From assembly GCF_030684315.1 (NCBI RefSeq), contig NC_081370.1, positions 47,696,728 to 47,760,727 on the forward strand: a DNA stretch of 64,000 nt. Direction: 5' to 3'. The position numbers and the translations under genes are program-made. Shown piece after piece: positions 5,240 to 60,219 of this stretch. Each line of letters starts with the position of its first letter. Position 1 is the first letter of the stretch. This stretch comes from Stegostoma tigrinum. Taxonomy: Eukaryota. The notes beneath the pieces are model-generated. The model was not told the origin of the DNA and made no database searches. It worked only from the letters and a program-made list of their open reading frames with translations.

Positions 5240-5418
5240 GATAGCAGATGCTGGAGAATCAGAGATAACAAGGTGTAGAGCTGAATGAACACAGCAGGCT
5301 AAGCAGCATCATAGGAGCAGGATTTCTGATGAAGGGCCTAGGCCCGAAATGTCAGCCTTCTTTACCGCCTGATGCTGCTTGGCCTGCTGTGGTCATCCTG
5401 CTCTATACCTTGTTATCT
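5240..5418. mobile_element. Fold-back mini-element made of inverted PLE family A termini
   Basis: gagataacaaggtgtagagctg...aagcagcatca is the reverse complement of tgatgctgctt...ctctataccttgttatctc; hammerhead core CTGATGA..GAAA at 5326-5349. Confidence 0.8.
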
Positions 5419-5579
5419 CCTAGAGACACATGATCTTGCGTAGCCAATAGGTGAATGCTATCCATTCCACTCTCATTTTTGAGTTGAAAACAATATCACT
5501 TCACTCTCTGCCATCAGTGGCTTCCAAACTCTGATTGTGTTTCCTATTTACATTCCAAATAAGTTATAATTAATCCATG

Positions 5580-5795
5580 CAAATGTGTGGAATTCTTTTC
5601 TCCAGAAGGCAGCGACGGCTGGATCTTTAATTTTTTGAGGCAGAGTTCGGTAAACTTTTGACTGACACAGGTATCAAGGGTTATGAAATGAAGAAAGGAT
5701 AGTGGAGTGGAGTTGAGTCCAAAGCCAGATCAGCCATGACCTTGCTGAATTGTGGAGAAGACTTGAAAAGCCAATAGCATACTGCTGTTTCTGTT
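5580..5795 (+). mobile_element. Old CR1 3' fragment
   Basis: gtggaattc...agatcagccatgaccttgctgaat...; resembles CR1 3' ends at 26430-26650 and 31320-31550. Confidence 0.6.
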
Positions 5796-6892
5796 TAGTT
5801 AATGTCAAATACAAGTTAGTATGCCCTCCCTTAATGGTTCAGCATGAAAGATTTCTTGTGGAGAGGGTGAACAACATATCAATACATAAAGGTTAAGAAA
5901 AAACTGTCAAATACCTTTCAGGTCCTTATCAGGCTCTCTTCTTTCACTGTTTGTAGTTCTGGGCATGAGACCAATTGCTACCTTCCAACACATAACAAGC
6001 TACACAACATTTGTGGCCTCCTCCCACAACTAGAGACACAGAAATCCCTCTTTTTATTGCTATCTCTCACTGCTGTAGATTTTTAGTTTGGCTTCTTCAA
6101 GAGTTGGTGCCCGTTCCCCTGTCTCTTTCCCAAATGCTACTATTTTCTGAGGTATCTCTGCTAGATCTATAAACTGGAAAAATGAAATAAAGCCCACAAT
6201 CACATGAACCCTGACAGTTAACTCATTTTGTTGAAAAGAGGGCTAGACAGTTTTCTACGAACAGTTTGATTAATATAACACTATTGACAGGAGTGTTTTT
6301 TTAATTCTCAAGTTGAATGAATCAGCTTTGATTTGGAATTTCATTCTGATCTCAGTGGTTCAAGACAAAATCTTTCAGATTCAATTCTGAGCTGAATGTT
6401 TTGGTCTTCTGATCTCAACAGTGCCCAGGATACATCCTTGAACATGAAAAGGATTATTTACTCTGAGTCAGAAAATTCTCTGCCCAATTTCCACCAGGCA
6501 AAGAATGGTTGTGCATGAAAGTCATTTTTAAGTAAGTTTTCAGCCAACGATTGAATGGTACAAAATTATTCCTTGGGGGTAACTCTGACGATTTAAAGAC
6601 TTGTCTGGGATTTGCGGTTCCGTCTTTACTGTTCCACCAAATGGAATAATACCAGAACATAAAGCTTTCTGCTAAGGCAGGAAGAAACATTATTCCAATG
6701 AAATGCAATATCAATGTTTAATACGAAGGCAACAATTGCAGCAGAGATACTGATCTTGCACTTTCCCCAAGGCCTTAGCCGTAACCAGTGGATAAATAGT
6801 TATTTACAAAAGGATCAATTTTTTAAAAAAGACCAGCCTAATATGCTCTTCTATTTTGAAAATCATTCTCTAAAAATGGTCTAAATTTCTCA

Positions 6893-7428
6893 ACAACATC
6901 TCTACTCCCTCAGGAGGCTCAGGTAATTCAGCATGTCCACTATGACTCTTGGTACAGATGCACCATAGAAAGCATCCTAATCTGGATACATCACAGCATG
7001 GTATGGCAACTCCTGCTCTCAAGACCACAAGCAACTGCAGAGAGTTGTGAACACAGGCCAGTCTATCATGCAAACCAACCCTCCATCCATTGACTCCATC
7101 TATACTTCCTATTGCCTTGGGAAAGCAGCCAACATAATCAAAGATGCCTCCCACTCCAGTTGTACTCTCTTCCACTCTCTTTTATTAGGCAGAAGATGTA
7201 AAAGTTTGAATATGCATGTGAATAGATTCAAGAACAGCTTGTTAACAGACTGTTAACAATCTCAAATGTTAATTTTGTTGTCTCTCTCTGCAGCTGTAGC
7301 ATAGTATTCTGCACTCTGTTCTGCTACCCCAATGCACTTTGTATGGTATGATCTGGCTGTACAGCACACAAAACAACAGTTTTCACTGTATCTTGGGACA
7401 TGTGACAACAATAAATCAATCAATCAAT
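6893..7428 (+). mobile_element. Rex1/Babar-type LINE 3' end
   Basis: Broken frames give QHLYSLRRLR, YRCTIESIL, ITAWYGN, QLQRVVNTGQSI and NIIKDASH, typical of the Rex1 RT C-terminus; ends in ttttcactgta...catgtgacaacaataaa(tcaa)n. Confidence 0.8.
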
Positions 7429-56692: not shown

Positions 56693-56909
56693 AAAAACCA
56701 AAAGTACTGCGGATGTCGTAAATCAGGAACCAAAACAGAAACTGCTGGAAAAGCTCAGCAGATCTGGCTGCATCTGTGAAGAAAAAAAAATCAGAGTTAA
56801 TATTTTTGGTCCTTTCTAAGGAAGGGTCACCTTCCTCCAAAATGTTAACTCTGATTTCTTTTTTCTTCACAGATGCTGCTGAGCTTTTCCAACAACTTGC
56901 ATTTTTGTC
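56693..56909. mobile_element. Fold-back PLE family B mini-element with perfect 13-bp TSD
   Basis: gcatctgtgaagaaaaaaaaatcagagttaa inverted to ttaactctgatttcttttttcttcacagatgc; TSD cacagtgagacat 56680-56692 / 56910-56922. Confidence 0.88.
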
Positions 56910-58680
56910 CACAGTGAGACATGCTGCACGCTGATACAGAGGGATATGACTCCAACATCCATCCACATTGTGCCTTTCCGAAACTCAGTGAAGGTGTCAC
57001 ACCAGGTGAATGACCACCCAATCTTATTGAGAAGGTGCTGCCTGCAACGCTTTGACACATCATATATCCCAGATCCAAATAAAATTCTCAACTTCTCGGT
57101 TCAGACCGTCATAACATTTACATGAAAATTGAAGAAGCAATGTTGTGTGGCTCCAACAGGATCCTTGGAAGTTGACGAAATAAGGGTTTCTCTTCAGACA
57201 CCATTTGTTGCTAACATTTCCTGGCGTCCAGAAAACATGGACTTCACACCTTCACCCTGGGCATTGTACCAGCCATTTTCTACATCCTTTTGCATCTCTA
57301 GAATGGCAAACGGTGGCAAGGAATGCTGGTCACTGTTGACAGTATCAGCACTGACACCTCTAGTTACTGGTTATCTCTCCTTGCATCGCCCTGTACCCCT
57401 CACAACTCTCCATCTCCCCTATTACCCCACACTCCTCCGGCACTCTCATGCCAATCCATTCCCCACAATGTGGAGTGCCACTACATTGAACTTCATCCAC
57501 AAATGTCCTTGCTACCCCATCAGCCCTGGTATTACACCTGCTCATCTGGTTCCTCTCTGTGAGTCCTCTGTGGATACCAAGGTGGGGGCCATTGTTAATG
57601 GCCTTTCCTGCTGATGGCATGCCCTCCAATGCTGTTCCTCATCCTCCTTGAGTTTTCACCCATGTCACCACTCTTTTCCTCACCTTTACAAATGCCTCCT
57701 GCTTCACCACCCCCACAGCCTTGACTCCTCCTGGGAAGTGATCTTTCTGCTTGCCCTTATTGGATCAGCTCTGGACCATCCTGAAAGATTTACAGACAAA
57801 ACTGATTGGGTCCCAGATCTTTGACTAATGTTGACAAGCAGGCCCCAGGCCTGGCCGACCAAACCCCTGACTGTTAATACGGAAATCCCTTCCACTCCTC
57901 AGCTGTTGGTGGTCCTTACACAACTGATGACTGAATAATCCTAGACTGTACTAAACAGTTCCCTTTCCTATGAAAATCCCAACTAAATTTATGTCTGTGG
58001 CAAAAACGACTGGACTGTGCAGAGCCGTCACTGATGCTGTTGGGACCTCCTGACTAATAATGCCCCATTCTCCATCCTGACTAGATTAAGAACTAACCAC
58101 CACCAGCTTCTGACATGGCCACTCAGTCCAAATAAACTTGCAGTCTATTTACCGCGAAAGCACCTGGCACAGATTGTAGGTGTTTAATTGACATCTTCGT
58201 GCACAGTTCTTGCCCCAGAGAGATCCCGATTGACAAGTATGTTTAGCAGCCTACCTGTGTGTCTGCACAAGAGAGTACCTCAAAGCAGCTGTAGTTACAG
58301 CCTTTAACCAACACAAATGAAATGGCAAGGAAACATGAGGCATAGACGCTGCATACATATAGGTGGGTGCAAAGTGAGCAAGTGTTAGGAGAGCAAGAAA
58401 TGCAGTCTAGTACAACTCTTAAGCTCAGTGCCTGTCTGAGCATGTGAAGTGTTGCTGCTGTAGCCTGTCAGTGGCAGTTGTTTTTTCGCTCCCTGCAGTG
58501 CAGGTCTGTGCTATGTGTGCATCAGAGAGGTGCCATTATTGGTTGTGATGGGTCAGCGATGGTGTAGACACAGGGTGCATAAGACTGGCTCTGTGGGTTG
58601 TGCCTTGAAATGCGGCTTTGTCACTCATAAACATGTACGGCGCTTGGAGCAAGTGCTGAGGCAGATCCACCAGGTCCCTG

Positions 58681-58839
58681 AGACAGCAAGGTGTAGAGCT
58701 GGGTGAACACAGCAGGCCAAGCAGCATCAGAGGAGCAGGAAGGCTGACGCTTCAGGCCTAGACCCTTTTTCATCTGTGTTCATCCAGCTCTACACCTCGT
58801 TATCTCAGATTCTTCAGCATCTGCAGTTCCTACTATCTC
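58681..58839. mobile_element. Fold-back PLE family A mini-element with 14-bp TSD
   Basis: aggtgtagagctgggtgaacacag inverted to ctgtgttcatccagctctacacct; TSD ccaccaggtccctg 58667-58680 / ccaccaggttcctg 58840-58853. Confidence 0.85.
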
Positions 58840-60219
58840 CCACCAGGTTCCTGCTTTGGTTTGCATGTTGAGTTTTGACAACATCTAGCTCATTTGCTGA
58901 TTATGGTAAGGTAGAAAGCTGGGCCATCAGCGAGGCCATTCACAACCAATAGTCCCCTTAACTGGTAACTCAGCACTGCCTAGGCTATTGTGAAAAACAT
59001 AAAACATATCACAAACAGGCTCCTGTGGCCTCAGTTCAAATCCGACTTGCTCAAGTTGTGTGTAATGACATCTCTGAACTGACTGATGTCAAAAGGTATT
59101 CATGACATCTAAATCAGTCTCAATGCACTTTTTGCCCATTGTTGCCATAGCTCAAACACTCAGACCCCTATAATGATTCCACCCACTATCCAGAATAGGT
59201 GCTAGATCATTTTGAATACAGTGCCTGAGGCAATTAATAAGCACTGTGATAGAGGACAATATATTTTCTGTCCACAAACAATCTGCCTAAACTTTATTTT
59301 CTGTCTTCAATCAAACATATATTCAATGCAGTATTCCTATATTACTCAAGTGAAATAAAATCAATTAAATTACTTGGCGCACAATGTAATTTCACAGATA
59401 AAGCAAGTACTACTTTCATGTGACAACAGCCTCTAGAAAAGATACCTTGTTAAATGTCATCTCATAACTGCACAATGAAAGCCCAAAGGTGATCCTAAGA
59501 TGGAACAAAATGTCACCTTGGGAACAAAATACATGGGAATAATTTGTGATTTAATATGTCTTTATATGGTGCATTTGCTGCATCTGTAAAGAAGAGACTG
59601 TCGAGAATTTTTGAAAGATAATAGCTTTCAATTCATTCATGTATCACTTGATAAATTCCCTCTCTTGTCAAAGCTCATTAATTCAGATCCGTTAATGCAA
59701 AATATTGTGGAATAAAATGAAATATTTATGTATGTAAATAAAAAAGTGACTACTTTTACACATCAAAATACAAACATCTCTTCACTCTGCTTGTGGCTCT
59801 CACCTCATGAAAGACTGGGCTCAATGTTTGGATCCTAGCATTTTTGAACTGGTATGTTACTTGTGTTACTTATGTAATCATTTTGAATGGTTTGAATGGC
59901 AGAAAATATAACCCTGTCCACAACAAAGATGGGATAGAGAAAGTGGGTAATGCTAAGGCCATCAGTGTAGTATCAGTGGTAAAAAAAAATGCTAAACGCT
60001 ATCATTAGGCTGTGATAATGGGGTATTTACAAAATTATAATGTGGTGTGACAGAGCTAACACAGAAATTACGGTTGGCAAATCCTCTAGGAGTTTTTGGA
60101 GACTCTAACTATATATGCAGGAACAAAGATGGCTGAATTTCCAATAGAAATTAATAAGATGTCAAAAAAAGAAAACACATTACACTAAATTAGGTCTCAT
60201 GTGATGGGTGCAATATATT

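Follow-up and report, generated by a model that had tools for sequence, protein, structure and literature searches.

The 64,000-nt stretch analysed here (the window; Stegostoma tigrinum, RefSeq assembly GCF_030684315.1, contig NC_081370.1, positions 47,696,728 to 47,760,727) contains nine short non-coding insertions, 139-317 bp long, that are built from the ends of Penelope-like elements (PLEs). These insertions, referred to below as minis and designated by their first coordinate, had been listed in an earlier note on the sequence, and their coordinates proved correct when the window was re-read. Profile searches with profiles built from the long PLE copies of the window detected both an antisense and a sense arm in eight of the nine minis; in 50278-50495, however, only the sense arm was detected. 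The description of the minis as consisting only of two inverted termini also does not apply to 45926, in which the right side comprises two tandem sense units. We numbered positions on the sense strand of the element from the first base of the hammerhead core (CUGANGA), which is +1, with no zero position. In the reference copy (22262-23535, minus strand), +1 corresponds to 22389, -1 to 22390, the predicted cut lies after +28 (22362), and the tail ends at approximately +128 (22262). Two families are present, A (variants A and A2 and two more) and B, which are alike only from approximately -3 to approximately +80 and unlike upstream of approximately -3. In the window, the layout forms a size continuum from single arms through the minis to insertions of 564 bp and 2.2 kb (Table 1).

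The earlier note reported target-site duplications (TSDs) of 11-14 bp, which we scored against 298 random boundary pairs. The TSDs were significant in five of the nine minis: one of the 298 control pairs was as good for each of 19653, 56693, 58681, and 46333, and three were as good for 7487 (14 bp, two mismatches). The TSD was not above chance in 5240, 43871, 45926, and 50278, for which 8-21% of the 298 controls were equally good. A single TSD encloses both arms of an element and none is found at its centre, indicating that each element represents one event; two independent adjacent insertions were therefore rejected. The TSDs vary in length and sequence, the ends are asymmetric, and the long PLE copies in the window carry TSDs of the same kind (9, 11, 16, and 17 bp). 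These features support retrotransposition, as had been proposed, and reject a miniature inverted-repeat transposable element (MITE), in which a short TSD of constant length would accompany symmetric, invariant terminal inverted repeats.

The nine minis have nine different centres, spanning at least four sequence variants of the two families, and no centre is shared in the window. Private variants are common to both arms within 7487, 19653, 45926, and 56693. The identity between the arms of one element was 65-90% (40% in 50278) and was not consistently above the identity to other copies; therefore, only the shared private variants were used as evidence. Because of the different centres and these variants, the minis were very probably made de novo at each integration. 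The mapping of inversion breakpoints against the predicted cut, which had been suggested as a check, led to the same conclusion, since the centres of the nine elements in the window were scattered and none were identical.

Inner arm ends were assigned by eye from the alignment and the junctions, and 17 were assignable across the nine minis. Eleven of these lie between -4 and +4, at the 5' edge of the hammerhead core; eight of the nine minis have at least one such arm, and the ninth (45926) has an end at +8. No assignable end falls within 3 nt of the predicted cut (after +28 in A and A2, after +30 in B), and 11 of the 17 keep the entire core upstream of the cut, so that a turn at the ribozyme cut was rejected. 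The inversion points thus differ between copies and cluster near the hammerhead, in agreement with the earlier note, but the cluster is located at the 5' edge of the core, approximately 30 nt upstream of the cut. Besides the well-preserved single arm listed in Table 1, two weak single family B arms (10017-10105 and 36198-36284) have an apparent end at the core, and a third (63929-64000) is interrupted by the window end; these single arms are absent from the list in the earlier note.

Table 1. PLE-derived insertions in the window. Inner ends are numbered from the hammerhead core.
Coordinates	Strand	Feature	Structure	Inner ends	TSD
4209-4878	+	5'-truncated family A copy	Tail-less		16 bp
5240-5418		Family A2 two-armed insertion	Antisense arm, tail partly deleted, to ~+34; sense arm -4 to +93	+34 / -4	Not significant
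7487-7723		A-type two-armed insertion	Arms nearly complete; tail on right arm	-2 / -3	7473-7486 / 7721-7734; 11-14 bp, 1-2 mismatches
17183-19337		Family B head-to-head insertion	Arms long and coding; tail confined to left arm		17174-17182 / 19338-19346; 9 bp
19653-19844		Family A two-armed insertion	1-nt centre; tail on right arm	-1/+1 and +3/+4	19642-19652 / 19845-19855; exact 11 bp
20048-20762	+	5'-truncated family A copy	Tail-less		17 bp, 2 mismatches
22262-23535	-	5'-truncated family A parent	Reverse transcriptase (RT) thumb, CX4CxxC linker, GIY-YIG (frame 22614-23453); TATA-like box at -34; core at 22389		11 bp
35445-35540	-	Single family B arm	Intact minimal hammerhead motif	-2/-3	35428-35444 / 35541-35557; exact 17 bp
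43871-44022		Decayed family B two-armed insertion	Sense arm from ~-1	~+45-50 / -1	6 bp, not significant
45926-46242		A-type insertion	Antisense arm +94 to +8 followed by a tandem pair of sense units	+8; units from ~+37	Not significant
46060-46150, 46152-46242		Tandem sense units inside 45926	~+37 to +130 each, near-identical
46333-46471		Family B two-armed insertion	Short left arm; tail-less	-3 / -4	46319-46332 / 46469-46482; 14 bp, 1 mismatch
50278-50495		Very decayed family B remnant	Sense arm alone statistically supported (E 0.001); left arm by eye	-2 (unsupported arm); other unassignable
56693-56909		Family B two-armed insertion	Tail on left arm; sense arm from -2	~+17 / -2	56680-56692 / 56910-56922; exact 13 bp
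58681-58839		Family A2 two-armed insertion	Antisense arm spans +93 to +2; tailed sense arm, +62 to +127	+2 / +62	58667-58680 / 58840-58853; 14 bp, 1 mismatch
60548-61111		Family A2 insertion, longer form of the layout	Short inverted arm, then 466-nt sense body and end	-4 to -7

The same stop was evident in contigs of four public runs out of 23 (X1, X5, X10, and X16), which were aligned to 22250-22849 at 80% likeness. Loose ends, defined as contig parts matching nothing in the reference, were compared at the best six places per run; the counts for X1 are lower bounds. In X1 (organism A, possibly the sample from which the window derives), at least 874 contigs had a loose end at 22390 (-1), the largest class listed, and at least 702 had one at the tail end. 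The X1 loose ends at -1 continued into unrelated DNA for a median of 255 letters, with an agreement of 0.37 (0.37-0.38 across runs). Since loose ends match nothing in the reference, these arms are joined to other DNA and not to a partner arm. Position -1 also led the listed places in X10 (organism C, 176 contigs) and X16 (organism D, 46 contigs), and five contigs of X5 had loose ends at -5. A2 copies diverge from the A reference immediately before -1; thus, the -1 class covers true ends from -1 to approximately -4. The depth stepped down across -1 (in X1, from approximately 25 M to 8-10 M), which is only a hint, as depth varies with divergence and does not represent copy number. Among the best six places per run, no loose-end class was found at the predicted cut (22361-22362), and the hot spot was approximately 29 nt upstream of it. 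The earlier proposal of template switching near the ribozyme site is supported as regards formation during integration, for which the differing centres and the shared subfamily variants speak, but not as regards the link to the cut.

Of the joints within contigs, we considered the best 15, beyond which there were 251 further joints. Head-to-tail joints from +6 back to +128 were found in 11 contigs of X1; like the tandem units of 45926, they show that synthesis of a complementary DNA (cDNA) can stop close to the core and begin again at the far site, close to +128. Two of these 15 were strand-change joints, both single contigs in X5, and neither was near the core.

The outer ends of the arms were located at approximately +93 in tail-less arms and approximately +128 in arms with a tail, except in two shorter arms (19653 left, +64; 46333 left, approximately +30). 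The asymmetry of the arms described in the earlier note was confirmed: exactly one arm has the tail in all five family A elements and in 56693, and none has two tails. The tail is on neither arm in 46333, and the family B tail differs in sequence from that of family A. A comparable arrangement has been described in Anolis carolinensis for PAc, which belongs to the Poseidon clade (Frangieh et al. 2024, PMC11167929) and in which two adjacent internal RT start sites delimit the tail, both target strands are cut and extended, and a minimal hammerhead is located just upstream. The outer ends at approximately +93 and +128 and the lack of a second tail match these two start sites and the two-strand extension, which would explain the tail asymmetry if each target strand primes one arm.

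No full-length parent copy was found in the window. The frame at 22614-23453 aligns with the C-terminal part of proteins of 750-950 aa and gives a Pfam match to GIY-YIG (E 3e-4) that is weaker than the curated cutoff; GIY-YIG was found in five of the five relatives scanned and RVT_1 in four. Family A has the arrangement of endonuclease-bearing PLEs, namely RT followed by a C-terminal GIY-YIG domain with cysteines between GIY and YIG. A CX2-5CxxC linker is present in the window frame and in all eight long relatives examined. According to PMC8557442, this linker occurs in Neptune and Nematis and not in Penelope/Poseidon; judged from this motif, family A is of the Neptune/Nematis type. The family B insertion at 17183-19337 is broken by a CR1 3' end near 18910-19100, and its sense arm contains an RT segment just upstream of the end point of the antisense arm.

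In both families, the coding part is followed by a minimal hammerhead of type I, with a CUGANGA core, stem II, GAAA, a UH cut site, and a short stem I. The motif, a putative self-cleaving ribozyme, was matched in A, A2, and the single B arm. No hammerhead hit was obtained in Rfam at the gathering threshold. Unconstrained folding of five ribozyme/tail regions gave z-scores of 0.8 to -0.3 and no hammerhead fold; this is expected for minimal motifs and was not used as evidence. The predicted stem I of family B pairs -1 to -4 and can be extended past a 2-nt bulge with -5 to -7 (19225-19275 and 17280-17326). Since this extension would exist only in RNA started further upstream, a downstream ribozyme copy may be the better cutter.

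Upstream of the stop, all five long A and A2 copies contain a TATA-like TATTTAT at -35/-34. In family B, TATAAA is present at -32 in one of the two copies, and a variant is present at -27, across a short deletion, in the other. An initiator match with its A at -4 was found in both A2 copies and both B copies, although families A and B are alike only from approximately -3. The stop lies 28-31 nt below the TATA-like box, on the initiator match, and this spacing suits a polymerase II core promoter. These motifs suggest that the RNA of the element may start approximately 4 nt upstream of the hammerhead core. In rotifer Pen2a_Av, a TATA box and an initiator have been noted in the pseudo-long terminal repeat (pseudo-LTR), whose inverted copy falls 37 bp short of full length (PMC3846280), and Craig et al. 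2021 (PMC8557442) placed the transcription start site within the pseudo-LTR. The upstream TATA-like box is absent from the minis, and they are most likely dead.

The constant position of the stop, upstream of the ribozyme core, is indicative of run-off cDNAs. We consider it reasonably likely that the minis are one-off integration products of an endonuclease-bearing PLE, formed when run-off cDNAs from an RNA starting near -4 were joined. In this model, the RNA would start approximately 4 nt upstream of the core, from the TATA-like box and initiator in the pseudo-LTR, as the motifs and the arm stops suggest. The endonuclease would nick both target strands 11-17 nt apart, producing the observed TSDs; nicking and extension of both strands have been seen in vitro for PAc (PMC11167929). 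Each target 3' end would then prime RT inside the RNA at a near site (approximately +93) or a far site (approximately +128), leaving one arm with and one without a tail; the end positions are those observed, and the two start sites are carried over from Anolis. If priming occurred at the copy of the site near the RNA 5' end, the cDNA would run off after approximately 97 or 132 nt in the manner of a strong-stop product. The two cDNA ends would finally be joined head to head by end joining, either blunt or after trimming of one, which would yield the variable centres observed. One such cDNA alone would give a single arm, and a short cDNA combined with a long one would produce a long copy whose 5' end carries the classical inverted pseudo-LTR.

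Several observations weigh against this model. The proposed RNA start was deduced from contig data and motifs and not from RNA 5' ends, and the Anolis data concern a Poseidon element and not the clade of family A. The initiator match at -4 is absent in all three long family A copies, and the A/A2 motif is an imperfect match to the TATA consensus that coincides in part with a sequence resembling a 3' splice site near -23. In family B, a CAG ends at -3, making a splice junction at -2 possible; in D. virilis, the Penelope intron is reported to extend as far as the 5' side of helix I (PMC4209133). Further downstream, at +8 to +62, are the ends of five or six arms, the nearest being 6 nt past the cut. 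The comparison of the best six places per run leaves room for a smaller class at the cut site, and the summed depth drops somewhat between +40 to +21 and +20 to +1. The variants shared between arms would be produced equally well by snap-back copying. Finally, the second arm of the fold-back at 60217-61443 continues as an inverted repeat of the flanking sequence; self-copying would explain this better than priming from two ends, or it may reflect a later repair event between the arms. At this site, 61112-61443, directly after the insertion 60548-61111, is a 330-bp inverted copy, 90% identical, of the left flank 60217-60547, a CR1 coding fragment that extends further left; the resulting 1.2-kb fold-back includes host DNA, has no TSD, and lacks a stretch of the CR1 on the right.

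Self-copying by snap-back would require one cDNA, or an antisense RNA as in Arkhipova et al. 2013, to fold at a palindrome near the hammerhead and copy itself into the second arm, and self-priming is favoured in the Discussion of PMC3846280. Private variants common to the arms of one element, the inverted flank copy at 60217-61443, and an imperfect palindrome across the 5' edge of the core in A2 and B are all consistent with this explanation, which does not, however, account for single arms that stop at the same place and are joined to unrelated DNA, or for a tail-less arm stopping at the second RT start site beside the TSD. The predicted energy of cDNA homodimers was -1.9 to -4.5 kcal/mol in the -4 window, compared with -6.6 at stem II (A2 and B) and approximately -9 further downstream in A; self-pairing is thus stronger at stem II or downstream than at the stop, and a turn set by the strongest palindrome was rejected. 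Moreover, the centre of 19653 would be a 1-nt loop, which is sterically too tight for snap-back priming. We therefore regard snap-back as an unlikely origin of the minis. If two primers and a de novo origin are retained, the stop at -4 to +4 might instead be a splice junction, a pause of the RT at the hammerhead fold, or a processing site. The family B CAG, the D. virilis intron, and the lack of an initiator match in family A all fit such a stop, as does the fact that the predicted stem I of family B pairs exactly -1 to -4. On the other hand, A2 has no AG at -1 to -4, and its acceptor-like site near -24 has no loose-end class among the places listed; the sense arm of 46333 retains -4/-3, and the two families have the TATA-like spacing in common despite their otherwise dissimilar upstream sequences. 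A stop of this kind appears distinctly unlikely.

It is highly improbable that the ends are defined by the ribozyme, with the hammerhead cutting the RNA and cDNAs ending or switching at the cut. Both families have the minimal type I hammerhead, the ends at +34 (5240) and approximately +37 (units of 45926) lie a few nucleotides past the cut, and two joints in X1 connect -4 with +31/+32, although their kind is not shown in the table of joints. Nevertheless, the inner ends and the listed loose-end classes avoid the cut as described above, and the ribozyme mutants of PAc leave insertion unchanged and no RNA reads end at the cut (PMC11167929). The minis are equally improbable as a self-propagating hairpin parasite, either retrozyme-like or SINE-like (resembling short interspersed elements), that is mobilised in trans, a possibility raised in the earlier note. 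Their abundance (nine in 64 kb) and the head-to-tail joints of +6 to +128 units in the 11 X1 contigs might be expected of such a parasite, and PLE pseudo-LTRs are capable of acting in trans (PMC3846280) and are a source of non-LTR retrozymes (bioRxiv 10.64898/2026.07.22.740005). However, a propagating hairpin is at odds with nine different centres in at least four variants of two families, with arms that are head to head and not tandem, and with the absence of the TATA-like box. No strand-change joint near the core was found in the best 15, which is a weak argument because palindromic centres can break contigs. The retrozyme-like alternative was also not supported, as the window contains no shared centre and no tandem ribozyme-bearing units.

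The minis, which are real and abundant, represent a known PLE insertion pattern in its shortest form and not a new parasite class. The claim of a new class was not supported, as the layout is in print: the canonical unit of endonuclease-bearing PLEs (Pen2a_Av and Pen2_Av, PMC3846280; Fig. 2 of PMC8557442) has an inverted end, one variable TSD, and a tail of 30-40 bp at one end only. Correspondingly, the window has head-to-head ends in eight of nine minis, a variable TSD in five of nine, and the tail at one end in all five A-type minis and 56693. Unlike the canonical unit, both arms of the minis are only approximately 30-135 bp long and there is no coding part. The available portions of the canonical papers draw no link between the inner end and the start of the RNA and prefer self-priming from an antisense template. 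In PAc, 5' truncation of the template shortens the product, and the accessible text of that paper does not treat two-armed minis or a genomic run-off end (PMC11167929). PAc belongs to the Poseidon clade, unlike family A with its CX2-5CxxC linker. The hammerheads resemble the minimal motifs that Cervera and De la Pena (2014, PMC4209133) described in metazoan PLEs in having the same type I core, short stem I, and palindromic stem III. Pairs of such motifs on opposite strands were reported 100-700 bp apart, along with many truncated single copies, whereas the motifs in the window abut or overlap at the centre.

Non-LTR retrozymes (Li, Clavereau and Pollet, bioRxiv 10.64898/2026.07.22.740005) are likewise short, non-coding, and derived from PLE pseudo-LTRs with a type I hammerhead. 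Their definition calls for a tandem run of two or more units, every one of which includes a complete type I hammerhead. The minis differ in being head to head instead of tandem head to tail with a ribozyme per unit, and they do not form a family of fixed structure; their arms are inverted, and the tandem units of 45926 begin downstream of the ribozyme, so that none was classified as a non-LTR retrozyme. Two further processes offer partial parallels. In LINE-1 twin priming, each of two target ends primes a cDNA and the pair is subsequently joined, and the inverted part is a different RNA segment; in the minis, by contrast, both arms copy the same segment. In the synthesis of retroviral minus-strand strong-stop DNA, copying begins inside the RNA and proceeds until the cDNA runs out of template at the 5' end; unlike in retroviruses, no tRNA primer or integrase is involved in the minis. 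Shark two-armed minis and the run-off reading were not found in searches of an open-access library, and subscription papers or supplementary figures may anticipate them.

Six minis folded far better than dinucleotide-shuffled controls, of which 60 were used (z-scores of -13.5 for 19653, -12.8 for 7487, -11.8 for 5240, -11.7 for 56693, -7.1 for 45926, and -5.8 for 58681), and the effect was slight or nil in 46333 (-2.2), 43871 (-2.0), and 50278 (-1.0), as in the single-arm control 35445 (+0.8). On the basis of these predicted energies, it is plausible that the minis may serve as a source of double-stranded RNA in the host. With regard to the surrounding DNA, the window is dense in decayed fragments of CR1-type long interspersed elements, one of which adjoins a decayed PLE coding fragment from the RT region (33228-33776, plus strand), and an assembly gap of 139 N occupies 49213-49351. 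No Pfam hit indicating host exons was obtained from 127 of the 136 non-repeat frames of at least 62 aa, a scan that would miss short exons. Exact-motif scans of metagenome contigs, viral contigs, and prokaryote genomes gave no match.

As objects, the minis are ordinary dead PLE insertions that are liable to be mislabelled as MITEs during annotation. They are of value as a record of how PLEs are copied, a step that is called undefined or not yet validated in PMC8557442 and PMC11167929. The sharp stop at the predicted RNA start, in two families and three organisms, turns the origin of the inverted pseudo-LTR and of short copies as run-off cDNAs into a testable question. The same observations raise the tentative, and on balance doubtful, possibility that PLEs replicate by a strong-stop mechanism. 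RT would start near the RNA 5' end and run off the capped start at approximately -4, and the downstream hammerhead cut (+28/+30) would make the RNA 3' end. The terminal redundancy from -4 to +28 would let one strong-stop cDNA jump to the 3' end, a second, from the other target strand, would become the inverted pseudo-LTR, and single arms and minis would be failed jumps. If true, this one mechanism would explain why PLEs carry pseudo-LTRs, an inverted end, and a tail on one side only, and what their ribozyme does.

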